Below are positions 1 through 59,579 of a DNA stretch of 64,000 nucleotides, one piece after another. Position 1 is the stretch's first letter, and each line of letters starts with the position of its first letter. The notes beneath the pieces are model-generated. The model searched no databases. It saw only the letters and a list, made by a program, of their open reading frames with translations, and was not told the DNA's origin. Source of the stretch: an uncultured Candidatus Binatia bacterium (GTDB lineage: Bacteria > Desulfobacterota > Binatia > UBA9968 > JAJDTQ01). The stretch covers positions 1,216,001-1,280,000 of the forward strand of contig OZ243916.1 of assembly GCA_965213675.1 (NCBI GenBank), in the 5' to 3' direction. The position numbers and the translations under genes were made by a program.

Positions 1-500
1 TGTGCAGGATTGTGCCCGGAACGGCGACTGCGGCGCTCGAGGAGTACACGACTGTCTGACGCAGTTATGAAATCTTGCCATAGGCGTCGTCGAAGCCGCT
101 TTTCTTCGCCGTATCCTTCGGCACAAGCTGTCTGCGACGCGATACAAATACGGGGCATTTCCGTGAGCTCGGCACACTCGTGGACATGGCGAATCCATTT
201 TGCCACCGTTTCTTCGTCCGTGGCTTCCACCCACAGAACGAGCGCCCCAGTATCATGCTCTCTGGAGCGCTTCGCCATGGACTGTATGGGAGTCAGTATG
301 CCCGCTTCTGCAGATCTCACGGCAGACCAACGCCCGATACCCTTACGTTTAAGTAGGTCGGCGAGTTCCACCGCGAACAAATCTCTCGCATCATCCGGGA
401 GCCCTGCGAGGACGGCGCTACGGTTGACGAGATCTTCAACCATAGTCCACAGGAAGTCCACTGGGCCCGGCAAGTTGGCCCAACCACGTGGGAGACTCAT
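1..500 (-). CDS. Hypothetical protein coupled to the giant NTPase (partial, runs off the window; absent from ORF track)
   Basis: ATG at 500 overlaps the TGA of 497..6250 (ATGA). The frame stays open to the window edge: MSLPRGWANLPGPVDFLWTMVEDLVNRSAVLAGLPDD... Confidence 0.75.
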   Translation of the reverse strand, partial: MSLPRGWANLPGPVDFLWTMVEDLVNRSAVLAGLPDDARDLFAVELADLLKRKGIGRWSAVRSAEAGILTPIQSMAKRSREHDTGALVLWVEATDEETVAKWIRHVHECAELTEMPRICIASQTACAEGYGEEKRLRRRLWQDFITASDSRVLLERRSRRSGHNPA

Positions 501-3500
501 TCGCTGAAGTAGGCAGTGAGGCCCTTCGCATAAGCCGCATCGAGACGGTAGCCGTCACCATGCCTGCACACGATGCCGAGACGATCGGCCCATCGGACAA
601 TCTTGACCACGTCTGTTACGGAGACCGGCCTGTCCACAGCTCCAGACATTTCCGACAATTCATCGACGCTCATCGTTTCCTGAGCATCGTAAAACTCGGA
701 CAAGACGTGAAGCACAGGTTCTGCCTCCCGAACGTCGAGAACGTCGGATACTATGTTCTCCTCCTGAAGGGCAATATCGGCCGCTTCCGCCACTGAGGAT
801 TGGCATTCCGATTCGGCGGCCAGCTCAACCACGACGGGCCACAAGGAGTCGACCGGGTTTTCCAGGTCGGCAAAAGCCTGCGCCTCCAGGTCTCTCAACC
901 ATGAGTATGCAAAGCCCCTGGCACAAGGTCCGAGCCACACTTCCCAAACAGTCGCCCTTCCCTTGCGCCTTGACCGTCCCCGGTTCATCCACTCCCAGGC
1001 TTCGGCGGGACCACCGAGGAGCACAGGCCGGACGATTCGTTTACTGGAACTAAGTGCTCCAATGAATCCAAGCACCGTATCCAGCAAGTGAGAATTCCAT
1101 CCGCTACGTATATCCACGAGAACGAAATGAACACCGGCCTCGCGCCTTCGTGACGCAACTTGAAGTTGCGACCTGACAGACTCCACGTCCGGTATCTCCT
1201 TCACGACGAGGGGCTCTACCGATCGCCCCTTTCCCTCGGCCGCCTGAATAAGGGAATCCTGCACCCGATCGAGGTTAAGGCCAGCGAGTCGTGTGCCGAA
1301 TAACAGCGCTACCCACGGCTTGGGGGAGAGTAGTTGGTCTTCCTGTTCGGCCGTGAGCACAGACAATCGCGGTCCGTGGACATCAATCGTGCGGCGGAAC
1401 TGGGATGGATCGAAGACCAGGTGCGGCTCCCGATCCTTGGCATCATTGAACCGCCGCTCAATCTCGTCCTCGTTACCGAGTAACATACGCAAGTTGCGTG
1501 TACGAATGGCGAACCCTTCATCACCCACTTTTCGAAGTATACCGAGGCCAACCATCTCTTCGAGAAGAACTTCAAAAGCCAAATGAGTCCGATCGGAATC
1601 GAACGCTTGAGGCCATTCACTCAATGCTGTTTCTCGGATCGCATCGATCGACATGTCACCTAGTCCCATGCGGTCGTCATGGAAACTATTCCATGCAATG
1701 AGATAAGCGAGGAATTCGTACCGGGAATCGAGATGTATCGTCCACGAGAACAAATTCCGGATCCGATCGCGCGTTTCCTTGGAGTGGAATGCGTGGTCAA
1801 TCTGTTCCGGTAAGACTATGAAGGGGGGACCGAGCGCGTCATCGTTCTCACGCAGAACCAGTAACAGATCCTTGCAGAATTGCTGAGCGAGAGCTGGATA
1901 GTAATTCGTCTCCGCGGCGATCCGTATAACCGAATCCCTCGATTGGAAGCGATGACCGAGCGCCTCAAACGGCGCACGTATCAGATTCTCGATCTCGGCA
2001 CCATCGGTCTCGGGCAGCATTGGTCCGATGCGGACCGGAGCGCCCAAATGCGCCAACGGTGTATTAGGATCTCGAGCCGCTCGTTGAACGTTGTGGAGCC
2101 CGGCGAACACGACCTTGAATCGCCTGTCCGTGTCTTCCATCAACTGCTTGATCTGCTCAAGCACATGGTAGGGCGGTTTTTGCAGCCGATCTGCATCTAG
2201 AAAGTCGTCGGCTTCGTCCACCAGAAACAATATCCGACGAACCGGGTCGCCTTTGAGCCACTGCTGCACGCTCGCTTGGAACCTGTCATAGCGAACCGTT
2301 CCGTCCGCGACGACTTCATGCTCTGCGAGTTGCTTGGTGAACAAGCGCCATAGCTCATCGGTCGGTAGCCTCTGTCCGATGCCCGACGCCTTAAGATTGA
2401 GAACAAGTACCAACTGATCTGGTGCCCGAGACTCGTACTCGCGCGCAATGTGTCTGAAGAGAGCAGTCTTGCCGAGTCTCCGCCCGCCATAGACGAAATG
2501 AGTCATGTCTCCGCCGGACACGGCAAGGATCTTGTCGCGCTCCTCCTTGCGCCCGAAGAACATTTCGGGCGGAACCTCGACCGCGTCCGGATCAAACGGT
2601 TGAGTGAATGTAAAAGCCGAAGCGCAATCGAAAAAGGCGCCTTGTCGCCGGCCGGGCAGCGCGGAAAGAAAGGCAACGAGCGCCTCGTCGAGCACTAACG
2701 TCGGTTGGCTGTCGCCGACCCTGAACTCGCGCGCGAGCTCGCGGCGCGTGGCAACATCCAGGACACTCAAAAAAAGAACTATATTGGGCCGGTGTTCGTC
2801 CGCGGTCCATGCCCCCGCTTCCCGAACGATCGCCTCGTGGGAGTCGCGGCCGCGGATCGTGAAAAGCCGGTACCGTCCTCCGGCGCGTGAACCGAAAACC
2901 GGAAGTTGTGCGATGTTGCGGTCCGTAATTGAAGAGCTACGTAGATCAAATACTGCTTCTCCGTCATTCGTCCGGGCATCGGTCAAGTCCACACGTGCTC
3001 TCGCGAAACCGAGCGCATTCACAACTTCGCCCAACTTCTCGTTGGTCGTCGCGCCCGTGTAAAGTGCCTTCCATGCTTCAAGAAGTCGGACGCCATCGCG
3101 GGCCGAATCGGGCGAAAGAGTCGTCGCGTCGATACATTCCACGCGGTTGCGGTCATTGACCGCCTGACGGACATCCCCAAGCGCGTCTGGCCTGTCGGCC
3201 CGGAACGCACCATATGCTTCAACAAATTCCGGGAAAAACCGATCAAGGGGACGATCTGCCTCCACATCGGATCTTGGCAGCGAATCGCCCCCAGCTATCC
3301 GGTTGATGAAATCATCTGCGACTTGAAAACGGTCGGCGTTGATGAGACCTTCGATTCGTACCCTGTTCTCCTGAGACGTATCAAGATCCTCCAGCCGTGT
3401 CTGAATCTTTGTGCGAAAGCGTTCGTGACTGCTGTCGATCTCCCTCTCGATTGCGTCAAGGTCATCAAACAACGTCCTAAACTCGCCAATCTCCGATGAA

Positions 3501-6250
3501 TCTGGAGGGGTCAGCCGGTCGCCGAGCCGGTCATGGTCCTCTGCGGACAGGATACCTAAAGCATAGGATACGTCGAGCCGGTTTCTCGTCTTGTCATGCC
3601 TGCTCTTGAGACGCTCCGAGGTAACCGAGCGCTCTTTCTCGACTCTGGTTTTGACACGGGCGATATCCCTTTCATCGAGAAGATTGCCTCGTTCTACGTA
3701 TTCCAGGACAAACTCGGCTGCCCGAAAGTCGCCATACTGAACCCGTTCGACAATGCCACGCTCGAAGTCAAGACGATCCTGCTCGGCAAAACGTAGCAGG
3801 ACGCTGGTCGAAGGCAGCGTTTCGTGAATAAGCCCGCTTACACCGTCCGATCGAACGCTGGAGTCGGCGAACAGATCGCCATTCAGTAAATCCTGCAATC
3901 GGAGACGCGTGGAGGGTGCCTCGCTTCCCGCGTTTTCGAACATTTCGACGTAGCGCTCCACCAACCTTCTAGCTTGAAGTGCCGCCCGGGTGTTGAGCGA
4001 GGCGATCTCCTGAATCGCACCTTGGCCTTGGTCATGCACCGCCGAACGTAGTTTTTCCGCCACGGCTATGCTGGATTCTTGCCTTCCGTCTGGCCGCGTT
4101 TGAAGCAGATTGTCCCAACGATCAATGAAACCAACGGCCTCACGGATTTTTTCACGCAAGCGCAATCGTGCATTCCCGGTGATTTGTTTTGTCCGCGGAG
4201 TGCCCCGTAGGGAGCGATCTACCCTATCTATTTCGTCTTCGCCGTACCGCCGCCAATGTTCAGCAATAGCCTTGACGCCCGCGATATCGATCTTTTTGGC
4301 TGGCGTCGCCAGCAACTTGAACATGCCGCCGATAGAACAGCGTTTCTTCTCTGTCCATTCATCAAGTATCCGGTGCCAGACCTTGGTCGCAGCCCCGAAC
4401 TGTATCTTCGATTGGCGCTCCGCGTCGATCCAGTGCGTCCCTTCCTTCTGAAGGAACTCGGCCCTTTCGGTCCAATCCGCCTCCGGGGAGGCCTCGCCGC
4501 GAAGTAGTTTTGCAGGAAGATGGACACCAACCTGGGAGACTTCCGCCGCGACCTTCACCAATTCCCGCAGGGCCGGCATCCCATCGAAGCCAGTTTCCAG
4601 CGACAACAGCAACTGGGCGATCGGCCAACCCGGAGCGATTTGCGCAGGTATCAACGCCGCACCGGCGGCAAGAGCCAAATAATCTACCCGATCGGCCTTC
4701 GGCCTTCGAACCGACCCAGAGCAATTCATCAGGTTAGCGACAAGCGAATCCCGCTCATCGGTCACATGGCTACTCGCAATGAAGGTGATTGTTTCTGGTC
4801 CCGGTAGCGCGTCTGGGGCAGAGAGAGCAAGATGGTAGGCTACCCCAAAGCGATCGTGCTCGAGTGCTGTCACTATCGCCGCCTCGATTTCCCCGGGCGA
4901 AACAACTCCGTCGCCGCGGGAGGTCGTCGTTCGATTACTTTCTCCTTTAAGATGTGCCGAGATCGCATCGCCCGAAGACGCAACGTGCGCGCCATCGATC
5001 GTTGCAGCCTCGTCGAGAACGTCCATTTCCTCGTCCGTAGCCGGTTCCAGTTCGGCGTCATCAACTGGCGATACGACATCGGTTTGTAGTTCTGATGCGA
5101 CCTCGTTCGCATCAAGGAAGGCGCCTTCCGATGCCTCCTCGCTCCTCACCTCCGGCCCTACTTCCAAGGTGTGTCTCGGCGCATGGCCCTTACGTTGCAA
5201 TTCGAAAAGGGTCGAGTTGATGACCGCGTGTGCCCTTTCCCGCTCATCATTAAGCGACGCGAGAGCAGTACCAAGGGAACCCACCAAGAGGTAGTCCTCG
5301 TCCTCGCGTGCCTGATCCAGGGCTTCACGTTTCTCATTGAAAGTAACGTCGGTAACGAGCGCGGCCTCGAAGAGATGGAGAATTTCTTCTAAGTGCTGTT
5401 GATCGATGTTACAGGTGTCAGCCCAAGCTTCGAGCCTTCCAAAAGTGGTCGCCAGTTCTTGGGCGTCGGCGAGCACCTCCGAATAGGATTCCCGCCAAGC
5501 CGAAATCCGCGATTTCTGTTGCTGGATGTTACGGCGCTGAGCCTCACGGGACTCAGCGATCTTGATCAATTGGCCGACGTGTTGGCCAAGGGTCTGGAGC
5601 AAATCCGGTTCCAGGCGTCCAGCGCTCAAGGTCGCCGCTCTCGCCTGAATCTTCTCGATAAGTGCCGTGGCTTCAATGCGTTCGTTATCGTCTGTTGGGT
5701 GCTGCTCTTCAGATCGGTCGCTGTCGAAATGAAGGCCCGCACGGACATCTTTCAGAAAGGTCTCTGCGTCCGGGTGTCTTTCGAGTGCGTCGAGAAGGTA
5801 GTCTGCAGAATCGAACAGGACGCTTTGCGCCCAGACGAATTCGGCGAATCGGTCCCATTTACCTGTTTGGGCAAGCGCACTCCCGTAGTCATCGGCATTC
5901 GGCCTCGAGATCAAGTGGTCGACGCCCAACTCGGTGGAATTCTGCGCATTTCCCAGGCAGGCCTTTCTCAGGCGACGAGGAAGATCCGCCCGCCCATGCC
6001 GTTTGCGCTTCCCTCTTTCGAAGACTTCCTTTGCGCTCTCGTAGTTGGTTCGACCTTCCGCCGTACTGAGCAGGACATGCAAGCGTGTGTAGAAATCGCC
6101 AGTCGACACGGTCTTCTTCCAAGTGGAAGATGACACGTGTTCCAACGCCTCTGCAAAGGCTCGCTCCTGAGTCTTGGCAAACTGCAGAACCTCTTTGAGC
6201 CGTCCGGGCGTCAAGGTGGACGGAAGTCCGTCGCCTAGAAGATACGACAT
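497..6250 (-). CDS. Giant (1917 aa) STAND-like P-loop NTPase with long helical/coiled-coil N-terminal region
   Basis: PPEMFFGR pre-motif, Walker A YGGRRLGKT, Walker B ILFLVDEAD, VVFAG sensor strand, YYPALAQ (GxP-like) motif, likely winged helix downstream. Confidence 0.8.
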   Translation of the reverse strand: MSYLLGDGLPSTLTPGRLKEVLQFAKTQERAFAEALEHVSSSTWKKTVSTGDFYTRLHVLLSTAEGRTNYESAKEVFERGKRKRHGRADLPRRLRKACLGNAQNSTELGVDHLISRPNADDYGSALAQTGKWDRFAEFVWAQSVLFDSADYLLDALERHPDAETFLKDVRAGLHFDSDRSEEQHPTDDNERIEATALIEKIQARAATLSAGRLEPDLLQTLGQHVGQLIKIAESREAQRRNIQQQKSRISAWRESYSEVLADAQELATTFGRLEAWADTCNIDQQHLEEILHLFEAALVTDVTFNEKREALDQAREDEDYLLVGSLGTALASLNDERERAHAVINSTLFELQRKGHAPRHTLEVGPEVRSEEASEGAFLDANEVASELQTDVVSPVDDAELEPATDEEMDVLDEAATIDGAHVASSGDAISAHLKGESNRTTTSRGDGVVSPGEIEAAIVTALEHDRFGVAYHLALSAPDALPGPETITFIASSHVTDERDSLVANLMNCSGSVRRPKADRVDYLALAAGAALIPAQIAPGWPIAQLLLSLETGFDGMPALRELVKVAAEVSQVGVHLPAKLLRGEASPEADWTERAEFLQKEGTHWIDAERQSKIQFGAATKVWHRILDEWTEKKRCSIGGMFKLLATPAKKIDIAGVKAIAEHWRRYGEDEIDRVDRSLRGTPRTKQITGNARLRLREKIREAVGFIDRWDNLLQTRPDGRQESSIAVAEKLRSAVHDQGQGAIQEIASLNTRAALQARRLVERYVEMFENAGSEAPSTRLRLQDLLNGDLFADSSVRSDGVSGLIHETLPSTSVLLRFAEQDRLDFERGIVERVQYGDFRAAEFVLEYVERGNLLDERDIARVKTRVEKERSVTSERLKSRHDKTRNRLDVSYALGILSAEDHDRLGDRLTPPDSSEIGEFRTLFDDLDAIEREIDSSHERFRTKIQTRLEDLDTSQENRVRIEGLINADRFQVADDFINRIAGGDSLPRSDVEADRPLDRFFPEFVEAYGAFRADRPDALGDVRQAVNDRNRVECIDATTLSPDSARDGVRLLEAWKALYTGATTNEKLGEVVNALGFARARVDLTDARTNDGEAVFDLRSSSITDRNIAQLPVFGSRAGGRYRLFTIRGRDSHEAIVREAGAWTADEHRPNIVLFLSVLDVATRRELAREFRVGDSQPTLVLDEALVAFLSALPGRRQGAFFDCASAFTFTQPFDPDAVEVPPEMFFGRKEERDKILAVSGGDMTHFVYGGRRLGKTALFRHIAREYESRAPDQLVLVLNLKASGIGQRLPTDELWRLFTKQLAEHEVVADGTVRYDRFQASVQQWLKGDPVRRILFLVDEADDFLDADRLQKPPYHVLEQIKQLMEDTDRRFKVVFAGLHNVQRAARDPNTPLAHLGAPVRIGPMLPETDGAEIENLIRAPFEALGHRFQSRDSVIRIAAETNYYPALAQQFCKDLLLVLRENDDALGPPFIVLPEQIDHAFHSKETRDRIRNLFSWTIHLDSRYEFLAYLIAWNSFHDDRMGLGDMSIDAIRETALSEWPQAFDSDRTHLAFEVLLEEMVGLGILRKVGDEGFAIRTRNLRMLLGNEDEIERRFNDAKDREPHLVFDPSQFRRTIDVHGPRLSVLTAEQEDQLLSPKPWVALLFGTRLAGLNLDRVQDSLIQAAEGKGRSVEPLVVKEIPDVESVRSQLQVASRRREAGVHFVLVDIRSGWNSHLLDTVLGFIGALSSSKRIVRPVLLGGPAEAWEWMNRGRSRRKGRATVWEVWLGPCARGFAYSWLRDLEAQAFADLENPVDSLWPVVVELAAESECQSSVAEAADIALQEENIVSDVLDVREAEPVLHVLSEFYDAQETMSVDELSEMSGAVDRPVSVTDVVKIVRWADRLGIVCRHGDGYRLDAAYAKGLTAYFSE

Positions 6251-6366
6251 TGTAATGACACTAGCGATAATTTCTCTTTTGGGTTGGTCTACATGTAGAT
6301 GTTCCTTTATGTCAAATGGTTGACACTTGGTCTTCCCCGGGTTTGGCGGACATCTGATAAGGGGCG

Positions 6367-6678
6367 ATGATGGCCTTGGAGGTGAGGACCATGACTCGGA
6401 CGAGACGGAGGTATTCGAAGGAGTTGAAGCTCGAAACGGTCAAACTGTTCAAGGAAGGACCGCGCTTGGTCGGAGAGGTCGCCCGTGATCTGGACTTGAC
6501 GGAATCGGCGGTTCGCAATTGGGTGCGGCAGTTCGACGTGGACGCTGGTGTGCGCGAGGGGGTGAGCACGGGCGAGCTCGAGGAGGTACGCCAGTTGCGG
6601 TCGGAGAACCGGCAGCTACGGATGGAGCGCGACATCCTAAAAAAAGCGACGGCCTTCTTCGCCAAGGAATCGATGTGA
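6367..6678 (+). CDS. IS3-family transposase OrfA
   Basis: HTH (VARDLDLTESAVRNW), leucine zipper, ILKKATAFFAKE end with A7G slippery site. Confidence 0.9.
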   Translation: MMALEVRTMTRTRRRYSKELKLETVKLFKEGPRLVGEVARDLDLTESAVRNWVRQFDVDAGVREGVSTGELEEVRQLRSENRQLRMERDILKKATAFFAKESM

Positions 6679-6883
6679 GGTCCGCGTTCATCGAGGCGGA
6701 GAAGGCCAGATTTCCCGTGACCATGATGTGCCGGCTGCTTGAGGTCTCTCGAAGCGGCTTCTACGCCTCGCGTGCTCTCACGACGCCCACGCGAAGCGTA
6801 GAAGCCGCTTCGAGAAACCTCAAGCAGCCGGCACATCATGGTCACGGGAAATCTGGCCTTCTCCGCCTCGATGAACGCGAACC

Positions 6884-7195
6884 TCACATCGATTCCTTGG
6901 CGAAGAAGGCCCTCGCTTTTTTTAGGATGTCGCGCTCCATCCGTAGCTGCCGGTTCTCCGTCCGCAGCCGGCGTAGCTCATCGAGTTCCCTCGTGCTCAC
7001 GCCCTCACGCACACCAGCGTCCACGTCGAACTGGCGCACCCAATTGCGAACCGCCGATTCCGTCAAGTCCAGACCACGCGCGACCTCTCCGATCGAGCGC
7101 GGTCCTTCCTTGACCAGCTTCACCGTTTCCTGCTTGAACTCCTTCGAAAACTTCCGTCTCTTCCCTGTCATGGTCGTCACATCCGAGGCCATCAT
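6884..7195 (-). CDS. IS3-family transposase OrfA (second, diverged copy)
   Basis: Same motifs as 6367..6678 with several substitutions. Confidence 0.9.
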   Translation of the reverse strand: MMASDVTTMTGKRRKFSKEFKQETVKLVKEGPRSIGEVARGLDLTESAVRNWVRQFDVDAGVREGVSTRELDELRRLRTENRQLRMERDILKKARAFFAKESM

Positions 7196-7334
7196 CGCCT
7201 CTTATCAGATGTCCGCCAAACCCCGGTAAGACCACTCTGTAAGGGCACGTTGGACGTCTCTTGCGAAGCTCGGTTGCGCGAGTCGCGAATCTCGCGCGGA
7301 CAACCGTACGGCGTGTGAGATCACCGGAAGCAGA

Positions 7335-7773
7335 TCACGCGGCCTCGCCGACTGTCACGCTCACACGCTTCCCCAACCGGCGCAATGCGCGGTCGATGGT
7401 GGCTGCCTTCGTGACATGATCCGGATTCAGCATGCGCTGCACCTCGCTCTCGGCAACATTGAGGTCGTGGGCGAGACGGCTTTGCGACATGCCAGCCTTA
7501 CGGAACGCCTCGTAGAGGGCCGCCTTCAGCGCAATCGGCACCGGGGGAACAACAATCGGCCGACGCCTAGTCGCGCGCGATGGCTTCGGCAGGTCCCTAC
7601 CCTCACGCATCGTAGCCGCGATCAACTCTCGAAGCAGGTCACGGGCTTCGACCAGCGCCTCGTCGCGAGTCGCGCCGTCCGTTGCGCCCCACCCGAAATC
7701 CGGAAACGCGACGATATAACGGCCGTCCTGGTCGCGCTCGATCTCGGCGGGAAAGTTGTAGGTGTCCGACATC
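7335..7773 (-). CDS. hicB: HicB-family antitoxin with C-terminal HTH
   Basis: YIVAFPDF..ATDGATRDEAL..ARDLL motif, C-terminal HTH, downstream of hicA; start placed at MSDTYN. Confidence 0.85.
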
Positions 7774-7814
7774 GGTTCAGTTCTCCATATTCGGGCAGCT
7801 CCAGTACTCACCCA

Positions 7815-8027
7815 CTAGAATTCGTCCCTGTCGATCCCGAGGTCGGCAAGCATCTTGGCGAGCAGTCCCTTGCCGATGTCCTTCTTTCGATCCTTGACGC
7901 CAGTCTTCCGATCTCCCGCGTAGAGCGTTCCGTGCGATCCCAGCCCTTCCGACACCACGAAGCGAATCTCCAAATTCCGGGCCCTTGCCCATTGGCGGAC
8001 CCTGGTGATGAACTGCCGCCCGTTCAT
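7815..8027 (-). CDS. hicA: HicA-family toxin (mRNA interferase)
   Basis: 70 aa, GxGSH motif, DIGKGLLAKMLADLGI C-terminus. Confidence 0.85.
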   Translation of the reverse strand: MNGRQFITRVRQWARARNLEIRFVVSEGLGSHGTLYAGDRKTGVKDRKKDIGKGLLAKMLADLGIDRDEF

Positions 8028-8035
8028 CTACTCCT

Positions 8036-8063
8036 AGTGTAAGCCGCCGCCCGCGACTGTCAA
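8036..8063 (-). promoter_or_regulatory. Sigma70-type promoter of hicAB
   Basis: TTGACA-N16-TACACT ending 8 nt before the hicA ATG (near-leaderless). Confidence 0.55.
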
Positions 8064-8451
8064 GAATGGCTGATGAGCCCGCCTCAGTGGCCAGGCTCCA
8101 TGCAATACTCCTCCTCGATGTCGCCGAGCCCAATGGACCAAGTCCGACTTCATGCGGATGGCGAACGAGCCGATGGTATGGCTGGCTCCATGGTGTCCAA
8201 CGTTGATGGTCATCCGGCCGCTCGCACGGTAGCCACACCCACGGCCGGAGCCGACAAACGGCGTCGTTGTGCGCGAAGTCCCCAGAATCCATCTCCAGCG
8301 CGCCTTGAGACGAACCATTATGTCGGTCTGCTCTTCGACTTCCTGGTTGTTGATGAGCAGCATGCAGCGTATCTTCCAGTGAAGGATTGGTAAAGCAAGG
8401 CCCGGGACCGGGTAAGACCAGACTACCACGGATGACAAGGAGGAGGACCGC

Positions 8452-8844
8452 ATGTTCATGAGAGCTGTCCATCCCGGCGAGGTCTTGAAAGGCGAGTTGG
8501 AAGAGTTGAGGATCACTCCGACGGAATTCGCGCGGCAGATCGACGTCCCCCCAAACCGGGTTAGCCAGATTGTCGCCGGGAAGCGTTCGGTCGCGGGCGA
8601 CACCGCGCTACGCTTCGGTCACTGGTTCGGCAGCGATCCCCAGTTCTGGCTCAACCTTCAGACCCAGTACGACTTGCTTCAGGCCGACAGGGAGACCGGC
8701 GCCGAGATACGTCATCTGCCGACCAAGGCGAGCGTTCCAGGAAAGGGTGTCGGTCCAGGGATCGCATGCCCAGAGAAGGAGCGCGAGCGCGGATTGGCGG
8801 AAGCTGAGGGGCGGTGTTTCGGACAGACACGTCCAGGCGGCTGA
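8452..8844 (+). CDS. higA: HigA-family antitoxin (orphan)
   Basis: VHPGEVL...VPPNRVSQIVAGKRSV..DTALRF..WFG.DPQFWLNLQ..YDL; AGGAGG SD. Confidence 0.9.
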   Translation: MFMRAVHPGEVLKGELEELRITPTEFARQIDVPPNRVSQIVAGKRSVAGDTALRFGHWFGSDPQFWLNLQTQYDLLQADRETGAEIRHLPTKASVPGKGVGPGIACPEKERERGLAEAEGRCFGQTRPGG

Positions 8845-9296
8845 ACGGCGAGCAAAGAAAAGCCGTCTCAGGCAAGCCTCTTGCCGAGGATTTTCTTCGT
8901 TGTTCCATCATCGGTTTGGCCGACTGGCGGGATATCGACTACGTGACGCTTCCTGGCGTCGAGCCTGCGCAGCCCCCGAAACAAAGAAAACAACCGAGGA
9001 GAACCGCGACGGGAACACGCCGGCCAAGTGTCCGAGGCCATCTCCTGGACCAGGGCGGAATTCAGGGCTTCAAGCTGGGCATTTTGGGCATCGGGTCTCT
9101 CACGCACTGCGCCAAGTCACTAGAGCAATCGACCCCAATACCGTCATCCCGTCCGACGACGAGCCCCGTACCACGCGGATAACTCGGTAGGACGCAAAGC
9201 AACTCCGCGGCGCTGTCTCGTAGTTGACTCCCAGTAGGACAGGTGGGTATGAATCCAGACTTGATCGAAACGAAGTCAACTTGAGGTACTCTTCGA

Positions 9297-9325
9297 TTGA
9301 CATGCGGTGGCGGCAAAGGTAAAGT
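9297..9325 (+). promoter_or_regulatory. Sigma70 promoter upstream of the NYN module
   Basis: TTGACA (9297-9302)-N17-TAAAGT (9320-9325). Confidence 0.7.
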
Positions 9326-9331
9326 CCGCCC

Positions 9332-9390
9332 GACTAGCTTGCTAACCCCCCCCGGGATCGAGCCGGAAACGGCCCCCGGGGGTTTTTTTT
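9332..9390 (+). ncRNA. Putative ~60-nt structured RNA or attenuator ending in an intrinsic terminator
   Basis: CCCCCGGG/CCCGGGGG stem enclosing a GCCG-GAAA-CGGC GNRA hairpin, then T8, 9 nt before the NYN ATG. Confidence 0.5.
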
Positions 9391-9399
9391 GAGTTCCTT

Positions 9400-10026
9400 A
9401 TGGCGCCAGAACGCGCGGTCCTCTTCATCGACGGAAGCAACTTTTACCATGCCGCCAAGAACATCGGAATCGCCACGGGAGAACTCGACTATCAGAAATT
9501 GGCCGAAAAACTCGTTATGAATCGGCAACTGGCCGGTATCCGATACTATGTCGGACAGGTTTCCGGCAATCTCTCCCGACGCTCGTCTCAAGAAAAGTTT
9601 CTGAGCAGGATCCAGCGCCAAGGCGTAGAGGTTTTCAAGGGCCGAATCGAGCGCAGGATAGTCCCCCCGAACGACAATCCATTGATTGGGAGGCTAAAGG
9701 ACGTAGTCGCGACCCATAAGTCCGATCTCCGTGGGCCAATTCTCGTCGAACTTGAAGCCTTGTGCAAAATGTCCGTCCCTCAGTACACCGAGAAGCGGGT
9801 CGATGTTTCAATCGCCGTGGACATGGTTACAATGGCGCACGGCGGACAATACGATATAGCGTATCTTCTCTCGGCAGATGGGGATTTCGTACCGGCAGTC
9901 GAAACCGTCAAGAAATCGGACAAAAGGGTATTCGCGGCTTCTCCGGCCTCCGGGTACGAGCTTGGAAGAGCCGTCGATAACTTCATTCCACTCAGACGGG
10001 ACTGGTTTTTTGGCTTGTCCGTATAA
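9400..10026 (+). CDS. NYN-domain (LabA/DUF88, PIN-like) ribonuclease
   Basis: FIDGSNFY, EKRVDVSIAVDM and LSADGDFVP acidic catalytic motifs. Confidence 0.9.
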   Translation: MAPERAVLFIDGSNFYHAAKNIGIATGELDYQKLAEKLVMNRQLAGIRYYVGQVSGNLSRRSSQEKFLSRIQRQGVEVFKGRIERRIVPPNDNPLIGRLKDVVATHKSDLRGPILVELEALCKMSVPQYTEKRVDVSIAVDMVTMAHGGQYDIAYLLSADGDFVPAVETVKKSDKRVFAASPASGYELGRAVDNFIPLRRDWFFGLSV

Positions 10027-10318
10027 GCGCCCGCAACCACCGCACCACCGGCCGTTGCGATCAACTGTGGATTGTCCGGGGAACTGAAACAGGCGCCCTG
10101 GGGTACGCATAGCCCAGCAAAGGGTGCCTAGAGGTCGCGCATACAAGCTTCCCGTTGCCTCTACTTGCCGTGCGTTTGACCGGCGTGCCGATCTACTGGC
10201 TCAACGGGCGTCGCGCTCGTAGGCGCCGGCCGCAGAGATGCCGGCGCCGTTCCCTCGCCCTGCCCGCGTGTAGATCACACCGCCACAGCCTTCGCAGACG
10301 ACGCGGCAGAGGTTCCGT

Positions 10319-11239
10319 TCAATCGACGCCCCAGTCAAGCATCTTCTCGTGGCGCCAGGATGACGTTCTGCCATCCGGATACATCGTTGGAATTTCGGCC
10401 TGGTATCTTGATTTTCGGCCTGTCGGATCTTCTTCGGCAAAGACCGCGACCACGCGGGCTTCGACAGAACGCCGCCTTGGCGCATCCTCCCGTGTCGTTG
10501 GATCGTTGAAGGCGGTGTGAAAGGTGACCCGGGAGGCCAGATCCTTGATGCGGGAATCGTATTGCCTGAAGATCATCGCCTCGTTCGGCTCCATTCGTGG
10601 AAAGTAATGCCAGCTCTGGGCCATGTCATGAACAAGGCGGTACAATACCACGCGGGTGCCCGGCTCGGTCAGACGCCATCCCTCGGAACTGACCATGTCA
10701 TCGGCCGAGATGGTCGTATGGTCGCACAAGGCAAGGGGTTTTGACTCGATTGCCTGCAGGGGGTCTATGCTGCGCCAGACAGTGTAGACGCCGAAGTGGT
10801 GGCCATCAGGTATGTCGAGCACATCCTCGACATAGGGAGTCAGATCCGCGTGGGGCGTCTCCGCATAGGTTCCGGCGCCGTTGGGCGAAATTGGCACACC
10901 GGTGCGAAACTCGTGCTGCATGGTCCGTGCACAAAGGCATCCGGTTGCCGCCATGACCAGTTCCGCGCACTGGTCGTAGAATCGGGAAACGACATCGTCA
11001 TGATTGCCGTAATCCATATCAATCGGCGCATGTACCAGCTCGAACCCCATGCGCCCGATGGTGGCGGCCGGTTCGAGGGCACGCGCATCGTGAACGCGGA
11101 TCGGCTTGACAACGAGCATTTCCGAATGATCGGCCCCATCACCGTGGCATGGCAGCCGGAACCCCCGGTATCTCGGATTCACGAAGGCACTTTCCGAAAC
11201 AACAAACGGCGTATCGGGAAACAATGGCAGAGTTCTCAT
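10319..11239 (-). CDS. CmcJ/NvfI-family Fe/2OG-type oxidoreductase
   Basis: IHDAR-like motif, GFELV, HAD (HxD), VWRSI..PLALCD, WHYFPRM, FHTAF, RRSVEAR; paralog of 37286..38119. Confidence 0.8.
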   Translation of the reverse strand: MRTLPLFPDTPFVVSESAFVNPRYRGFRLPCHGDGADHSEMLVVKPIRVHDARALEPAATIGRMGFELVHAPIDMDYGNHDDVVSRFYDQCAELVMAATGCLCARTMQHEFRTGVPISPNGAGTYAETPHADLTPYVEDVLDIPDGHHFGVYTVWRSIDPLQAIESKPLALCDHTTISADDMVSSEGWRLTEPGTRVVLYRLVHDMAQSWHYFPRMEPNEAMIFRQYDSRIKDLASRVTFHTAFNDPTTREDAPRRRSVEARVVAVFAEEDPTGRKSRYQAEIPTMYPDGRTSSWRHEKMLDWGVD

Positions 11240-11252
11240 GGCGCTGACCCTG

Positions 11253-11330
11253 TCAAACTGTCTGGCGCAAGGCCAAGTCACGAAACTGGCCTTCTGCCGC
11301 CAGCAATTCGTCGTAGCTTCCGGTCTGCAC
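11253..11330 (-). pseudogene. C-terminal remnant of an ABC exporter ATPase
   Basis: VQTGSYDELLAAEGQFRDLALRQTV* matches the usual end of ABC exporter NBDs; the rest of the gene is absent. Confidence 0.6.
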
Positions 11331-11391
11331 AGATGTCAGATCCGGGCCAATGATGCCACGGTGCAATCCGGCGGCAAATCCCGCTGCCACA

Positions 11392-12906
11392 TCATGACGT
11401 CGGCAGGTCCTGGAATTCGGGCGGTTGTGCCTTGCAGTAATCGTCAATGAATTGCTGGTGGTCCGGAAACTCGTTCACCTGCTTGTCGACATTTTCGTGG
11501 ATGTCGGCCAGGTATTGCCCCAGTTCCTCGTCGCTCATCGCATTGGCAATCGGGTGATACTGTTCCGGAATCAGACCCTGACCCAGCATGACCTGTGCCC
11601 ATGACGTGGTGCCGAATAGTTCCGCCTGGTTCCACGCTATCCGGCCCGTTTGACGAAACAACTTGATCCGGTGTTCGAGGGAGTCGGGAATGTTCATGGT
11701 CCGGCACTGCCGCCAGAACAGCGTATCCGAGCGGTTGGTCACATGGTAGTGCAGGATGATGAAATCCCGGATATTGTCGATTTCAAGCTGCATGTGGGAA
11801 TTGAACTCTGCGATCCCGGCTTCGCGAATTCCGTTATCGGGGAACATCTGGACCAAGCGGGTGATGCCACGCTGAATGAGGTGGATGCTGGTCGATTCGA
11901 GCGGTTCGATGAAACCGGATGCCAGTCCCACGGCAACGCAGTTCTTGTGCCAGTACCTGTGCCTCTGGCCGGCTCTGAAACGGATCAGCCGCGGCTCTCC
12001 AAGCACCCGACCCTGCACATTGTCGAGCAGCCGCGCCCTTGCCTCGTCGTCGGACCAGTGCCGGGAGGAGAACACCATGCCGTTCCCGACCCGGTGCTGC
12101 AGCGGAATGCGCCATTGCCACCCCGCTTCATGGGCTATCGAGCGGGTATATGGTTGCGCGGCTCCCGACGATTCGGTTGGCACCGCGATTGCGCGGTCAC
12201 AGGGCAACCAGTCGCCATAATCATCGAAGCCGACGTCGAGGGTTTGCCCGATCAGGAGCCCGCGAAAGCCAGTGCAGTCGATGAACAGGTCCCCGGTGAC
12301 GAGTTGCCCGGATTGCAGGCGCAGACCGGTTATGAATCCACTGGCCGGATCCTGTTCCACCTGCTCAATGCGTCCTTCATGCCGGACAACGCCAAGCTCC
12401 TCGGCAATACCTCGCAGGAATTGTCCGTACAGTCCGGCATCAATATGATAGGCGTAGTTCAGAACGTTGTGCAGGCTGATTGCAAACCGGTTGCGCAGCG
12501 ACGCCGTTGTTTCCGGACAATAGTCGCCATAATCCCGGGCCAAGCCCAGCAAATGGCCCCTCAGCCAGTAATGCTGAAAGCCGGCGGTCCAGCGCTCCCT
12601 GCCGACCCACCCGAAGGAATGGAAATAGTCTTCGCCCAGGTCCCGCCAGTTCTCGAACGAAATTCCAAGCTTGAAGGTGCCCTGTACAGCCCGCAGGAAA
12701 TCAGTCTCCCTGACATCCATGTATTCGTGAAAAAGTCGCAGCGGTGGAATCGTTGCTTCACCCACGCCGACAGTACCGATCTCGTCGGATTCGACCAGGG
12801 CAATGTCCAGGGTTTCGCGGAGCTGCCGGGCAAACATTGCCGCAGCCATCCATCCGGCAGTCCCACCGCCGGCGATCACGAGTTTCCTGATTTTCCTATT
12901 GTGCAT
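11392..12906 (-). CDS. Flavin-dependent tryptophan halogenase family protein (possibly peptidyl-Trp halogenase)
   Basis: GGGTAG, VGVGEATIP, catalytic Lys in TFKLGI, WQWRIP (WxWxIP), FIEPLESTSI. Confidence 0.92.
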   Translation of the reverse strand: MHNRKIRKLVIAGGGTAGWMAAAMFARQLRETLDIALVESDEIGTVGVGEATIPPLRLFHEYMDVRETDFLRAVQGTFKLGISFENWRDLGEDYFHSFGWVGRERWTAGFQHYWLRGHLLGLARDYGDYCPETTASLRNRFAISLHNVLNYAYHIDAGLYGQFLRGIAEELGVVRHEGRIEQVEQDPASGFITGLRLQSGQLVTGDLFIDCTGFRGLLIGQTLDVGFDDYGDWLPCDRAIAVPTESSGAAQPYTRSIAHEAGWQWRIPLQHRVGNGMVFSSRHWSDDEARARLLDNVQGRVLGEPRLIRFRAGQRHRYWHKNCVAVGLASGFIEPLESTSIHLIQRGITRLVQMFPDNGIREAGIAEFNSHMQLEIDNIRDFIILHYHVTNRSDTLFWRQCRTMNIPDSLEHRIKLFRQTGRIAWNQAELFGTTSWAQVMLGQGLIPEQYHPIANAMSDEELGQYLADIHENVDKQVNEFPDHQQFIDDYCKAQPPEFQDLPTS

Positions 12907-13325
12907 AACCTGCCTCTGGACGGTCGAGTTGGCGCATTCGCGCCATTGCCGGACCTGGTACAGGGCGGTTCAGTGTGGACAAAATCTGCAGTCTGACATA
13001 CGAGGCATCGACCAGACCCGGAAGTCTGGGACCGGGCAGCATGGGAATGCCGACACATGTGATGCTCAAAATGTCGATTCCGATCTCGAGTTCGGCATCC
13101 GGAGCATGTCAATGCCGATTTCGGCTCTGACGACAAATCAGGGATGACCGGCGGCCCAACGGATCGCCGCAGCCTGACACAAAATTGGCGCGCACCCATG
13201 ACCGGCAGCGCTGGCGGATGGAAGTCCCGCTGGAAGAGACGGCAACTCACCCGAAAGGAATGGTGCAGACTCCAGGCCGGTCTGACCCGGTCGGCATGGA
13301 CAGAGTATCGCGTGCAATGCCCGGT

Positions 13326-13516
13326 TCAACTCAGTCGCGACAATTCGGGAATGGCACCGCTGTCTTCAAGGACATGGATGGCGATGCCGTCCCGAACCGA
13401 AAGCCCGGTTGCGTCCTTGATGGCTGCCTTCGGGTCATTCAGAGCCGGGTGCGGAATTCTCCGTCCTCGTCGGCCCTGGCAAGCGCCTGTGCCTAGATCT
13501 GTGACGGTGAGTTCAT
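13326..13516 (-). pseudogene. Degenerate second NHLP precursor
   Basis: MNSPSQI*AQALARADEDGEFRTRL, then a 1-bp deletion, then NDPKAAIKDATGLSV.DGI.IHVLED; near-copy of 13621..13881 including the 5' UTR. Confidence 0.85.
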
Positions 13517-13620
13517 GTCCGTTCGCCCTGTTCTCTGAACATTGGCACGACGGCATTGCTTGGCAGGAAGAATGCCTCCGGCAGAAAATCAGCAGATCAC
13601 TGCCGGAGACCCGACAATAC

Positions 13621-13881
13621 TCACCAAGTGTTGATGTCACCAATCCCGCCGGCAACGCCCCTGATTTCCTCATCCGACAGGTTGCGGCCCGCCGGTGGCA
13701 GGACGAGGTGATAGTCGGTGGCGTTGTCTTCAACGACATGAATATTGATGCCGTCCGGAACCGAAAGCCCGGTTGCCTCCTTGATGGCTGCCTTCGGGTC
13801 ATTCAGGAGCCGGGTGCGGAATTCTCCGTCCTCGTCAGCCCTGGCAAGTACCTGCGCCTCGACTTGTGATTGTGTGCTCAT
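13621..13881 (-). CDS. NHLP-leader (proteusin-type) RiPP precursor, predicted core IGDINTW
   Basis: ARADEDGEFRTRLLNDPKAAI...IHVVED...HLVLP...LSDEEIRGVAGG double-Gly cleavage motif, then a 7-aa core. Confidence 0.92.
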   Translation of the reverse strand: MSTQSQVEAQVLARADEDGEFRTRLLNDPKAAIKEATGLSVPDGINIHVVEDNATDYHLVLPPAGRNLSDEEIRGVAGGIGDINTW

Positions 13882-13954
13882 GTCTGTTCCCCCTATTCTC
13901 TGAACATCGCCATAGCGACGTTACGTCCTGCCGTTTTCCACGCCCATTGAACTT

Positions 13955-13983
13955 AATTTACTTTAAGTCATTGTTCGAGTCAA
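13955..13983 (-). promoter_or_regulatory. Sigma70 promoter for the NHLP locus
   Basis: TTGACT-N17-TAAATT; overlapped by the inverted repeat ACTTAA-N6-TTAAGT (13951-13968). Confidence 0.55.
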
Positions 13984-14113
13984 AGTCTTTCCAAAGACAA
14001 ATGAGTCTGAAGGAGGAGGTGGACTCCAAGGAGCGGTGAGCCTGAAGACTGGGGATGGGGCAAGATGGGAGTGCGCAAATACTTGGGCTACGGGGGAACT
14101 CCTCACGGGCCTT

Positions 14114-37285: not shown

Positions 37286-38119
37286 TTAGAAAAACGCCAG
37301 AGTGCGCATCTCGATGCTTTCACGGGGCGGAGCGTCGGCCGGCGTGTCCGGGTCGTCGAAGGCCGAATGCAGGGTCCAGCGCGCGCGCCCGTCCTTCTCG
37401 GACTCGAAGGTCTTGAACACCACGGCCTCGTGCCGCTCCATGTGCGGGAAGTAGTACCAGTAATGCTCGGGATTGAAGGTGTAGTGCAACGTCTCGCCGC
37501 GGCGGTCCGGGTAGATGCGCGCGGTGGGGATGGCGCCCTCCATGCCAGTGCTGCGCGCGTCGCAGATGGCCAGCGGGTCCCGTGTCACCGGCCGGTTGAT
37601 GGGCCGCCACGTCTGAATCACGCCGAACCGCCCCTTGAGCAGCTCCTCGGCCTCGTCCGGCAGGATGTCGCGCACCCGCTGCGGCCCGGACCAGTCGGTG
37701 TAGTCGTTGTGGGCGCTGCGCACCGGGCCGCTCACCTGCTTCGCCTCCCGCGTGACCTCGTCGCCCGACCGCAGCGTGTGGTCGAACACCACCACGCGTT
37801 TCGCCCCGGAGGTCTTCTTCACAAGCTCTTCGGTCTCCTTGTAGTAGACCGTCCGCACCTCCTCCTGGTCGTAGAAGTCCCTCATCTGCGTATCGTGGCG
37901 CACCAGCACAAAGCCTTCGCGTTCCAGCGAGAGCCCGCCGGGCAGGAGCCGCGCGTTGTGAATCGAGACCGTGTGGCTCTCGTACTTGCCCCTGCGCTTC
38001 TGGTCGGCCTCCTTCTGGGTCATGCCGCCGAAGCTCGCCGGGGCTTCGGTGTCCTTGCTCAGGTAGTTGACCACGCCATGGATGGATTCCGGCTGTGCCG
38101 CCAACTGGGGTTTCGCCAT
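37286..38119 (-). CDS. CmcJ/NvfI-family oxidoreductase
   Basis: IHNAR, EGFVL, FDHTLR, AHNDYT, WRPI..PLAICDA, LHSAF, RESIEMR. Confidence 0.85.
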   Translation of the reverse strand: MAKPQLAAQPESIHGVVNYLSKDTEAPASFGGMTQKEADQKRRGKYESHTVSIHNARLLPGGLSLEREGFVLVRHDTQMRDFYDQEEVRTVYYKETEELVKKTSGAKRVVVFDHTLRSGDEVTREAKQVSGPVRSAHNDYTDWSGPQRVRDILPDEAEELLKGRFGVIQTWRPINRPVTRDPLAICDARSTGMEGAIPTARIYPDRRGETLHYTFNPEHYWYYFPHMERHEAVVFKTFESEKDGRARWTLHSAFDDPDTPADAPPRESIEMRTLAFF

Positions 38120-38162
38120 CGCGCCCTCCTTCGAATCGGGGAATCCCGCCGGCCGAACCGGA

Positions 38163-39281
38163 TCAGTCGAAACCATAGAACCGCGCGCAGTTGTCCCACA
38201 GGATCTTGCGCTTGGCCTCATCGGACAGATCGAGTTCCAGAAATTCCTTCACGGCGTAGGGATACCTGGAGTCGCCGTGGGGATAGTCGGTGGAGAAGAC
38301 GAGCTGGTCGCAGCCGAACTCCTCGATGGTGAACCGCGCCGGGGTCTCATCCGGCTCGATGGAAATCCAGCACTGGTCCTTGAAGTAATCGCTGGGTTTC
38401 CGGTCCAGGTCCTCCATATAGATGTCGCCCTCCCGCTCGTAACCTTCGTCGAAGCGCCAGAGGAGCCACGGCAGCCACGAGCAGTTGGCTTCCAGGAATG
38501 CCGCGCGGAGCTTGGGATGACGCGCGAGCACGCCGCCGCCCACAAAGCTCCCGAGCCCCATCATCTGCTCCAGGGGCTGGGAATAGACGCGCCTCAGGCC
38601 GAAGTTGGGCTCGAACTGCTCGCCGGCCTGGACCGTGCGGGACGTGGAGGCTTCGTGGAACCCGATGGGAAGGGACAACTCCTCCAGGGTATTCCAGAGG
38701 GGCTCGTAATACGCGTCGTGCAGGGGTTTGCCGTTGACCAGGTTGGACCTCAGAAAGACCGAGCGGAAGCCGTAATCACCCACCACCCGGCGCGCCTCCT
38801 CCACTGCGTCGTTGATGTCGTAGACCGAGATCATGCCGGCGCCGAACAGCCGGTTCGGGTCGGCGCTACAGAAGTCATGGAGCCAGTCGTTGTAGGCCCG
38901 CGCCAGAGCCCTGGCAAATTCCCGCGAGTGTCCCGGATAGGTGAGCACATGGAGGCCCCGGGTGGGAAACAGCACCGCCGCGTCGATGCCCTCCACATCC
39001 ATGGCCTCGAGTTGCACCTCGCCGGTCCAGCCTCTTTCGGAGTGCTCACGGTAGGTGTTCTGGTTTTTTTCGTAATTGCGGCCCTTGTGCAATTCCGCGC
39101 CGGTGCGGCGCGCGTCGATCGCCTTGTCGGGGAATCGCAGTGACAAATCCCGAACGTTCTCGGACGTGCGCCCCAGCGGAGCCTGTTCCTTGAACTCGGG
39201 CGGCAAGTACCGCGGCCACAAATCCGGGGGTTCCATGATGTGCATGTCGCTGTCGAACACCTTGAATCCGTCCCTTGCCAT
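38163..39281 (-). CDS. Amidohydrolase family protein
   Basis: DSDMHIMEP, GFHE, FLEANCSW, FSTDYPH. Confidence 0.9.
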   Translation of the reverse strand: MARDGFKVFDSDMHIMEPPDLWPRYLPPEFKEQAPLGRTSENVRDLSLRFPDKAIDARRTGAELHKGRNYEKNQNTYREHSERGWTGEVQLEAMDVEGIDAAVLFPTRGLHVLTYPGHSREFARALARAYNDWLHDFCSADPNRLFGAGMISVYDINDAVEEARRVVGDYGFRSVFLRSNLVNGKPLHDAYYEPLWNTLEELSLPIGFHEASTSRTVQAGEQFEPNFGLRRVYSQPLEQMMGLGSFVGGGVLARHPKLRAAFLEANCSWLPWLLWRFDEGYEREGDIYMEDLDRKPSDYFKDQCWISIEPDETPARFTIEEFGCDQLVFSTDYPHGDSRYPYAVKEFLELDLSDEAKRKILWDNCARFYGFD

Positions 39282-55258: not shown

Positions 55259-56182
55259 TCATGCCGCCAAGGTCCCGTTTATCAGGTCTTCGTGTTCCGA
55301 AGGAACTGTCAGAGGGGCGGGCGGGGTGTGAGGTCCGGCCTGCCTCTGGAGTCCTCGTTCGTAGGCCTCCGCCGGGGTGGAGCCGGCGAGGGCGGAATGA
55401 GGTCTTTGGGTGTTGTAGAAGTGGAGCCAGTTGGCGATGGTCCTTTGGGCGGCGAAGCCGTCGGTCAGCTCGTGCAGGTAGACGGCCTCGTACTTGAGGG
55501 AGCGCCACAGGCGCTCGATGAAGATGTTGTCCATGCACCGGCCCCTGCCGTCCATGGAGATGGCGACGCCGGCGTCCTTGAGCACGGAGGTGAACTCCAG
55601 GCTGGTGAACTGGCTGCCCTGGTCGGTGTTGAAGATCTCGGGAGGACCGTAGCGTTCCAGAGCCTCTGAGAGGGCCTCGACACAGAAGCGGGCATCGAGG
55701 GTGTTGGACAGCCTCCAGGAGAGCACCCGGCGGGTGGCCCAGTCCATCACCGCCACCAGGTACAGGAAGCCACTCTGGACAGGGATATAGGTGATGTCGG
55801 AGGTCCACACGTGATTGGGCCGTTCGATGGCGACCCCCTTGAGCCGATAGGGATAGACCCGGTGCTCGGGGTGCGGTCGGGTGGTCCGCGGCACCTGGTA
55901 GATGGCCTGGAGCCCCATCAGGCGCATCAGACGCCGCACCCGGTGACGACCCACTCGGACTCGCTCCCGCCACAGATGGCGGACCATCTGGCGGCTGCCG
56001 TAGAAGGGGTACTCCAGGAACAGCTTGTCGATCCGGCGCATCAGCGCCAGATTCTCCGCGCTCTCGCCCTTGGGCCGGTGGTACACAGAGGATCGACTCA
56101 CTCGAAGCAGATGGCATTGACGGCTCAAGCTGAGCTTGGGATGGCCGGGCTCGATCATCGCCCGGCGCTTCTCCCGGCTCAC
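55259..56182 (-). CDS. IS3 transposase OrfB (DDE)
   Basis: WTSDITY, NTDQGSQFTS, DNIFIERLWRSLKYE; GTGA overlap with orfA. Confidence 0.92.
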   Translation of the reverse strand: MSREKRRAMIEPGHPKLSLSRQCHLLRVSRSSVYHRPKGESAENLALMRRIDKLFLEYPFYGSRQMVRHLWRERVRVGRHRVRRLMRLMGLQAIYQVPRTTRPHPEHRVYPYRLKGVAIERPNHVWTSDITYIPVQSGFLYLVAVMDWATRRVLSWRLSNTLDARFCVEALSEALERYGPPEIFNTDQGSQFTSLEFTSVLKDAGVAISMDGRGRCMDNIFIERLWRSLKYEAVYLHELTDGFAAQRTIANWLHFYNTQRPHSALAGSTPAEAYERGLQRQAGPHTPPAPLTVPSEHEDLINGTLAA

Positions 56183-59576: not shown

Positions 59577-59579
59577 GGT

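Follow-up and report, generated by a model that had tools for sequence, protein, structure and literature searches.

Three co-oriented genes in a 64,000-nucleotide stretch of DNA from an uncultured Candidatus Binatia bacterium (contig OZ243916.1; the whole stretch is hereafter called the window) encode a proteusin-type precursor peptide with an NHLP leader, a flavin-dependent halogenase and a CmcJ/NvfI-type Fe(II)/2-oxoglutarate oxygenase. We take this locus, with a probability of roughly 0.6, to be a deletion-reduced copy of a horizontally mobile cassette for a peptide that is ribosomally synthesised and post-translationally modified (RiPP), found in sponge-type metagenome-assembled genomes (MAGs) from several phyla. 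Across this cassette family, the oxygenase is constant and the halogenase optional. Sequence comparison and a predicted complex suggest that the cassette has the oxygenase as its defining tailoring enzyme, acting on the C-terminal Trp of the precursor, and that bromination is an optional extra; we infer the chemistry from the same sources. What appears to be new is a proteusin cassette resembling the known srp clusters that contains a new family of tailoring enzymes together with a halogenase from a second clade.

The oxygenase and its cassettes

The three genes are intact and share the minus strand, as the earlier note had read them, and their products match the respective profiles. The elements of the locus are as follows.

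10319-11239, minus strand: CmcJ/NvfI-type Fe(II)/2-oxoglutarate oxygenase (profile NF041278), 306 aa long if it starts at the ATG at 11239 and 320 aa long if it starts at the GTG at 11281
11259-11366, minus strand: deletion scar with its junction at 11330/11331, from base-level alignment and tblastn
11392-12906, minus strand: flavin-dependent halogenase, 504 aa, assigned to the Xcc4156/BrvH clade from PF04820, solved relatives, a tree and motifs
~13326-13516, minus strand: broken second precursor copy; two tblastn pieces match the intact precursor at 76% and 79% identity
13590-13605, minus strand: terminator-like hairpin lying 16 nt downstream of the stop codon of the precursor; 4 such sites in the region versus 3.6 expected
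13621-13881, minus strand: NHLP (proteusin-type) precursor, 86 aa, matching the TIGR03793 leader_NHLP profile; leader ending in ...LVLPPAGRNLSDEEIRGVAGG, core IGDINTW
13955-13983 (read 13983->13955), minus strand: promoter-like site TTGACT-17-TAAATT, 9 of 12 consensus matches, upstream of the precursor

Homologous loci were searched for in one genome per species with the single oxygenase protein as query, which sets the reach of the search to close relatives. Five loci, 88-94% identical at the oxygenase, were found in MAGs titled Rhodospirillales, Ca. Poriferihabitaceae, Ca. Binatia and Alphaproteobacteria (two). Three of the five, the complete cassettes L014, L016 and L017, share one gene order: NHLP precursor (one to three copies), halogenase, a 739-residue C39-peptidase ABC (ATP-binding cassette) exporter (PCAT), a 995-residue ABC protein and the CmcJ-type oxygenase. 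The precursor, halogenase and oxygenase of the window are full length and 88-97% identical to the copies in complete cassettes. In the order to which the Poriferihabitaceae MAG belongs, 12 of 243 genomes carry the oxygenase clade, in 14 copies; 13 of these were examined, and the one left out lies on a 2.4-kb contig. Twelve of the 13 stand beside PCAT and ABC genes with an NHLP gene in the same stretch, as NHLP-PCAT-ABC-CmcJ cassettes, and the remaining one stands alone and carries an in-frame stop. A halogenase lies within the ~10 kb fetched on either side of the oxygenase in 3 of the 13. The earlier note had linked the oxygenase to the precursor and proposed a neighbourhood search for the same pairing elsewhere; the pairing recurs, and the link is borne out by gene order, by shared divergence and by a complex prediction that passes its controls. 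Over 91 pairs from 14 cassettes, the pairwise identity of CmcJ tracks that of ABC (r = 0.98), PCAT (0.98) and NHLP (0.90); the pairs are not independent, and the correlations therefore indicate co-inheritance and nothing more. Scanning metagenomes with the oxygenase alignment yielded only two loci, of which one lies at the beginning of its contig and the other is 1.7 kb long.

The genome of the window contains a paralogous cassette ~60 kb away (C1:1153378-1161475; L009:7378-15475), comprising a precursor with the core SWSALW, a 56-aa open reading frame (ORF), PCAT, ABC and an oxygenase 55-57% identical to that of the window. Its halogenase, encoded divergently upstream, is an SrpI-like protein of 424 residues that is 74% identical to the halogenase of the srp cluster in this genome. 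Because the paralogous cassette has recruited an SrpI-like enzyme instead, two unrelated halogenases are found beside short cores ending in Trp. The 986-aa protein of the paralogous cassette was considered as a LanM candidate and rejected; it is an ABC transporter.

The oxygenase itself scores 153.9 bits against NF041278 (CmcJ_NvfI_EfuI), for which the cut-off is 80, and the profile ends at residue 281. Its start is most likely the ATG at 11239, which is residue 15 of the 320-aa version, because the GTG at 11281 falls within the remnant of the lost ABC gene; homologues of 306 residues agree with this start. Residues H144, D146, H255 and R276 are invariant, and the HxD...H triad (H144/D146/H255) described by the earlier note is present in 16 of 16 clade members. 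In the profile alignment, the triad falls on NvfI residues 135, 137 and 250, the iron-site positions given in the NvfI paper. The text of that paper gives the triad as His135-His137-Asp250; by our own count from the alignment, the deposited chain reads His, Asp and His at these positions. The extra C-terminal tail, also described by the earlier note, has ~39 residues and is conserved throughout the clade; the enzyme also carries a clade-specific N-terminal segment. The top Foldseek match of the oxygenase model is NvfI (7emz; E 2.5e-18, TM 0.62/0.70), with CTB9 also among the best, and a sequence search of solved structures returned NvfI and CTB9 chains only; because of this outcome, we know of no solved complex of the oxygenase family with an NHLP peptide.

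Two further related sequences lie outside the locus. A paralogue 30% identical to the locus oxygenase is encoded at 37286-38221 (minus strand), in the high-GC core of the window; it stops where the family profile ends and has no C-terminal tail. Elsewhere in the genome (C1:1171633-1171788), a 51-aa ORF resembling the C-terminal tail of the clade (...RFQAEVPTVHLDGTPAASRHELMLDWNAG) looks like the remnant of a third oxygenase copy.

A complex of oxygenase and precursor was predicted with each protein entered as an alignment made for this analysis. The interface score (ipSAE) was 0.62 (runs 0.62, 0.40 and 0.64), versus 0.01 for the best control; the score mark used is attained by 58 of 80 solved complexes and by 2 of 110 mismatched pairs. 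The runs had at least 40% of contacts in common, and the partner had a predicted local confidence (pLDDT) of at least 77. On the precursor side, the confident contacts are residues 60, 62-63, 65-68, 72-73 and 85-86 (Thr85-Trp86); on the enzyme side, they are residues 16-26 (the N-terminal segment), 56-60, 218-220, Glu124, Ala140 and the iron ligand Asp146. Leader residues 60-73 (VLPPAGRNLSDEEI) are joined to enzyme residues 56-60, 218-220 and the N-terminal segment 16-26. This leader segment corresponds to the part of srp precursors that SrpI reads; according to the SrpI paper, the enzyme recognises in SrpE a proline-rich leader region followed by L-x4-L (PMC10858898). The C-terminal tail was considered as a leader binder and rejected, since it lies outside the predicted interface.

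The precursor matches TIGR03793 with 75.7 bits against a cut-off of 50.9, over positions 1-77 of 77. As the earlier note had described, it ends in a seven-residue core, IGDINTW; this follows VAGG, a putative double-glycine-type site, and the PCAT that would be its partner is encoded in the full cassettes and deleted from the window. All 47 close homologues from the database (65-90% identical) end in Trp, and their commonest core is IGDIDTW. The cores vary more widely across the cassettes: IGDINTW, IGDIHTW, SISDIDTW, TTNDYNPWGW, SWSALW, YAPSNGNW, YLPANGNY, FAPGGDSW (four times), YYSDSW, GSDMGGW and FGQGW. They range from 5 to 10 residues, and the C-terminal aromatic residue is the only feature common to all. 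With one constant enzyme paired here with one constant residue, the C-terminal Trp is, on the simplest view, what the oxygenase modifies. The earlier note had offered both Trp oxidation and Asp/Asn hydroxylation as activities: Trp is the only invariant residue in the close-homologue cores, which agrees with the first, and some cores contain neither Asp nor Asn, which speaks against the second.

Additional precursor copies are also seen. The window contains a second copy that is broken: codon 8 is an in-frame TAG, one nucleotide has been lost after ~codon 29, and the PPAG...GG region and the core are missing. The full cassette L017, from an Alphaproteobacteria MAG, has a second precursor at 2035-2304 with the core TTNDYNPWGW and a frameshifted third copy at ~2400-2700. 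Because L017 holds both, such copies seem to arise and decay repeatedly.

The halogenase

The earlier note had called the halogenase intact and likened it to SrpI. The enzyme is indeed complete, matching PF04820 with 626.7 bits over 457 of 458 profile positions and retaining GxGxxG at 13-18 (GGGTAG), Lys79 and WxWxIP at 263-268 (WQWRIP); four of the five cassette orthologues extracted also have 504 aa, and the fifth (L016) has 496. The likeness to SrpI did not survive. The halogenase is only 26% identical to the SrpI orthologue of its own genome, with 85 gaps, and its best solved relatives are Xcc4156 (6y1w), 9luq and BrvH (6frl): Xcc4156 6y1w matches residues 3-497 with E 1.1e-188 and 631.6 bits, and BrvH with E 4.3e-143, while MibH (5uao) scores E 2.9e-55. 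In a quick tree, the six cassette halogenases are monophyletic (100 in the approximate likelihood-ratio test SH-aLRT) and nest within a clade formed by free-living homologues; the two SrpI-like proteins lie far off, separated from the cassette halogenases by the longest branch. By its sequence, the halogenase is a member of the Xcc4156/BrvH clade and not of the SrpI type.

Free-living homologues of the halogenase occur in 33 of 401 sampled genomes of the phylum. Because the cassette halogenases nest among such homologues, the cassette appears to have recruited one branch of an orphan clade. Two of the free-living homologues (L085:8596-13436 and L080:5099-13538) adjoin TonB-type genes. One of these loci encodes a TonB-dependent receptor, SapC, Cupin_8 and LacI; the other encodes TonB, an extracytoplasmic function (ECF) sigma factor, CBM9, GH94 and a sugar transporter of the major facilitator superfamily (MFS). 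A second halogenase, 30-35% identical, often lies ~2 kb from the free-living homologue.

The deletion and its genomic setting

The earlier note had described the locus as minimal. It is minimal because ~5.9 kb with the PCAT and ABC exporter genes has been deleted, not by design. The loss occurred at 11330/11331, where the ~60 nt that normally trail the halogenase run straight into the final ~78 nt of the deleted ABC gene; the ABC remnant at 11259-11366 corresponds to 36 residues of the C-terminus, with 75% identity over 36 aa (tblastn). Homology to L014, L016 and L017 leaps from locus position ~4054-4593 to 9952. The evidence for this junction and for the broken precursor comes from the assembly and from comparing it with other genomes. 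Among 26 other genomes of the genus searched, one has the oxygenase, and that genome provides two loci, L021 and L015, which together with the window represent three deletion states. L021 retains less of the scar, and in L015 the TGA of the halogenase overlaps the ATG of the oxygenase; all three states bring the two genes closer together without breaking either reading frame. The L015 locus has its three-gene module of the window type directly behind the paralogous cassette with its exporters.

As to transcription, the earlier note had envisaged one promoter for all the genes. A promoter-like match does precede the precursor, and it is the sole one there; the region as a whole holds 5 such sites versus 1.6 from shuffles. 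With 9 of 12 consensus positions matched, the case for a promoter at this place is weak, and a single operon is conjectural. The hairpin after the precursor stop is not above chance and is of note for its position only.

The locus is embedded in DNA of lower GC content, which is 0.56-0.59 over window bases 1-14000 versus 0.62-0.70 over 14001-56000. A 1917-aa ORF at 497-6250 (minus strand) in this low-GC island has a single Pfam match, AAA_22 at 26.7 bits, just below the cut-off. It is followed by two 103-aa IS3-type transposase orfA genes (HTH_Tnp_1) at 6367-6678 (plus strand) and 6884-7195 (minus strand), which face each other and have no orfB. Beyond these, up to 10026, lie HicB-like, HicA-like (by eye), HTH_3 and NYN-domain genes, with toxin-antitoxin-like genes among them. 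The far end of the window (56001-64000) also has a lower GC content, 0.56-0.60, and may be another island. In the related loci, integrase and transposase pieces were recognised by eye from the translations.

Proposed pathway, alternatives and comparison with known systems

On this evidence, we propose that the oxygenase binds the leader segment VLPPAGRNLSDEEI and would then oxidise the C-terminal Trp of the core. CmcJ hydroxylates a carbon adjacent to an acylamino nitrogen, and Fe(II)/2-oxoglutarate enzymes are also able to desaturate or decarboxylate. Candidate reactions include hydroxylation of the beta or alpha C-H, desaturation to dehydro-Trp and oxidative decarboxylation to an enamide end. 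The Xcc4156-type halogenase would halogenate the indole of the same Trp, probably with bromine, and a PCAT encoded elsewhere in the genome would cut after GG and export the heptapeptide. We hold these steps with different degrees of assurance. That the oxygenase is a tailoring enzyme of this precursor we consider likely; that its target is the terminal core residue has, in our judgement, an even chance. We lean towards the view that the halogenase brominates the C-terminal Trp. Cleavage and export of the peptide of the window copy by a PCAT from elsewhere in the genome we see as finely balanced.

Several observations weigh against this account, and some of them open onto other explanations. 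Having lost its own exporter and one precursor, the window copy may be decaying. Carried further, this would make it a dead remnant left after exporter loss and precursor breakage, its three genes unused and yielding no product. The deletion with its ABC remnant, the broken precursor copy and the low-GC island with two inverted orfA fragments and toxin-antitoxin-like genes suit such an end, but the three genes are full length and close in sequence to those of the complete cassettes, and all three deletion states in the genus have kept both reading frames whole. Moreover, two other PCAT/ABC pairs in the genome (in the paralogous cassette and in the srp cluster) could act in trans, and the L015 module stands directly behind a cassette that has its exporters. 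Among RNA runs, none is recorded with the sequence, which weighs on neither side. We regard a dead remnant as unlikely. The structural side of our account also has its limits: the oxygenase was modelled with moderate confidence (mean pLDDT 65, predicted TM score (pTM) 0.71, and the tail 285-320 below 50), the calibration of the complex score is only rough because self-made alignments were used, and Thr85-Trp86, Glu124, Ala140 and Asp146 belong to one confident contact set that is listed without pairings. The conserved tail is absent from the predicted interface. MAG names and the srp cluster of the same genome, not sample data, are what connect the locus with sponges.

The halogenase could instead act on a free indole-type small molecule and not on a peptide, its place in the cassette being incidental or serving another product. 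BrvH and Xcc4156 accept indole for bromination but not free Trp, and neither has a known native substrate (PMC7336383, PMC7754283). No NHLP, PCAT or CmcJ gene was found within ~7 kb of the free-living homologues (51-60% identical) at any of 20 loci, in a search that did recover its positive controls; two such homologues are annotated in TonB-type loci, and 10 of the 13 cassettes examined have no halogenase at all. Against this stand the position of the gene between precursor and PCAT in L014, L016, L017 and L045, the monophyly of the six cassette copies in the tree, the recruitment by the paralogous cassette of a different halogenase close to SrpI, a proven peptidyl-Trp brominase, and the terminal Trp of all 47 close-homologue cores. 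A free small-molecule substrate for the cassette enzyme therefore seems to us improbable. The oxygenase, for its part, might hydroxylate Asp or Asn in the core and leave the C-terminal Trp alone. Asp beta-hydroxylation by Fe(II)/2-oxoglutarate enzymes is known in other RiPPs. By eye, Asp3 is present in 43 of the 47 cores of the precursor subfamily of the window, so Asp hydroxylation may apply to that subfamily, and many cores of other subfamilies contain Asp or Asn. However, neither residue occurs in SWSALW and FGQGW, both from oxygenase-bearing cassettes, or in FGHGGFAW and AAWVTTW, from close homologues, and the confident core contacts in the predicted complex are residues 85-86, not 82. We judge Asp or Asn as the target to be quite improbable, and we retain the C-terminal Trp.

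A bolder extension of this reading, which we put forward tentatively and consider doubtful, is that the tail-bearing CmcJ/NvfI oxygenases mark out a separate RiPP class, widespread in sponge symbionts, that oxidises the C-terminal Trp of 5-10-residue proteusin cores, possibly by oxidative decarboxylation to a dehydrotryptamine-type enamide. Bromination would then have been added twice independently, from two unrelated halogenase clades, and one of these additions would provide the first native peptidyl substrate for an Xcc4156/BrvH-type enzyme. A dehydrotryptamine-type enamide end is borne by the 6-bromo-didehydrotryptamine peptides of marine invertebrates.

If our reading is correct, RiPP chemistry would gain an enzyme family whose members have until now been known only from small-molecule pathways, here as the sole constant tailoring enzyme of a compact, mobile cassette that lends itself readily to expression and testing. 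The native substrate of BrvH/Xcc4156-type brominases has been an open question since 2018-2020, and the suggestion of a peptide had previously been without genomic support; a sub-branch of that clade is now placed in a peptide cassette, and the same data indicate that the free-living homologues, which make up most of the clade, do not share this setting. SrpI is already in use for leader-guided peptide modification. The ability to brominate and oxidise the C-terminal Trp of a 5-10-residue core under leader guidance would give peptide engineering useful handles. Because one genome has three related short-Trp-peptide systems, such peptides may matter in symbiosis. Our search of the full-text literature found no link of CmcJ/NvfI to RiPP precursors, with the founding srp paper and the SrpI supplements outside its scope, and the marine RiPP review PMC9505594 does not mention srp.

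Among known enzymes, CmcJ, NvfI and CTB9 share with the window oxygenase the membership in NF041278, the NvfI/CTB9 fold and an aligned metal triad. Their pathways concern small molecules: CmcJ takes a cephalosporin, NvfI acts on a fungal meroterpenoid and CTB9 on pre-cercosporin. In contrast, the clade described here is found in RiPP cassettes and has an added N-terminal segment and the ~39-residue C-terminal tail. Xcc4156 (6y1w) and BrvH (6frl) are among the closest solved relatives of the window halogenase and belong to the same clade as the cassette halogenases, but sampled relatives lie in TonB-type loci, whereas the window halogenase and five orthologues adjoin an NHLP precursor. MibH and MppI are likewise flavin halogenases acting on Trp of a ribosomal peptide; according to PMC12615548, MibH does so only after leader removal and on a cyclised peptide. 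Unlike these lanthipeptide systems, the window has no lanthionine synthetase, and MibH matches only distantly. Within the window coordinates, YcaO, LanC-like and radical-SAM matches are all absent, in agreement with the earlier note.

The srp clusters of sponge-derived RiPP proteusins (precursor SrpE, brominase SrpI, YcaO SrpC) are a close counterpart. The genome of the window has a canonical one outside the window, at C1:60167-80595 (L010, L011), with a YcaO (786 aa), an FA_desaturase/GlnE-like protein (811 aa), an NHLP-fused 433-aa protein, MMPL, ABC and PCAT; the sole YcaO of the genome lies at C1:66085-67095. Its precursor ends in ...ITEEQLEAISAG followed by the core LCCCW, and its halogenase has 423 aa with Lys84 and Pro105-Gln-Gln-Val-Ser109. 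In the SrpI paper, LCCCW is the core of SrpE, and Lys84 and the Pro105-Ser109 loop are named as SrpI residues (PMC10858898). The window cassette and the srp clusters have in common an NHLP precursor whose very short core has Trp at its end, a proline-rich region and an L-x4-L/I motif ahead of the cleavage site, PCAT and ABC exporter genes, and a spread over phyla in sponge-type MAGs. They differ in that the window cassette has no YcaO, a core without Cys and a halogenase from another clade; it also contains the CmcJ/NvfI oxygenase, a gene that the srp cluster of the same genome does not have.

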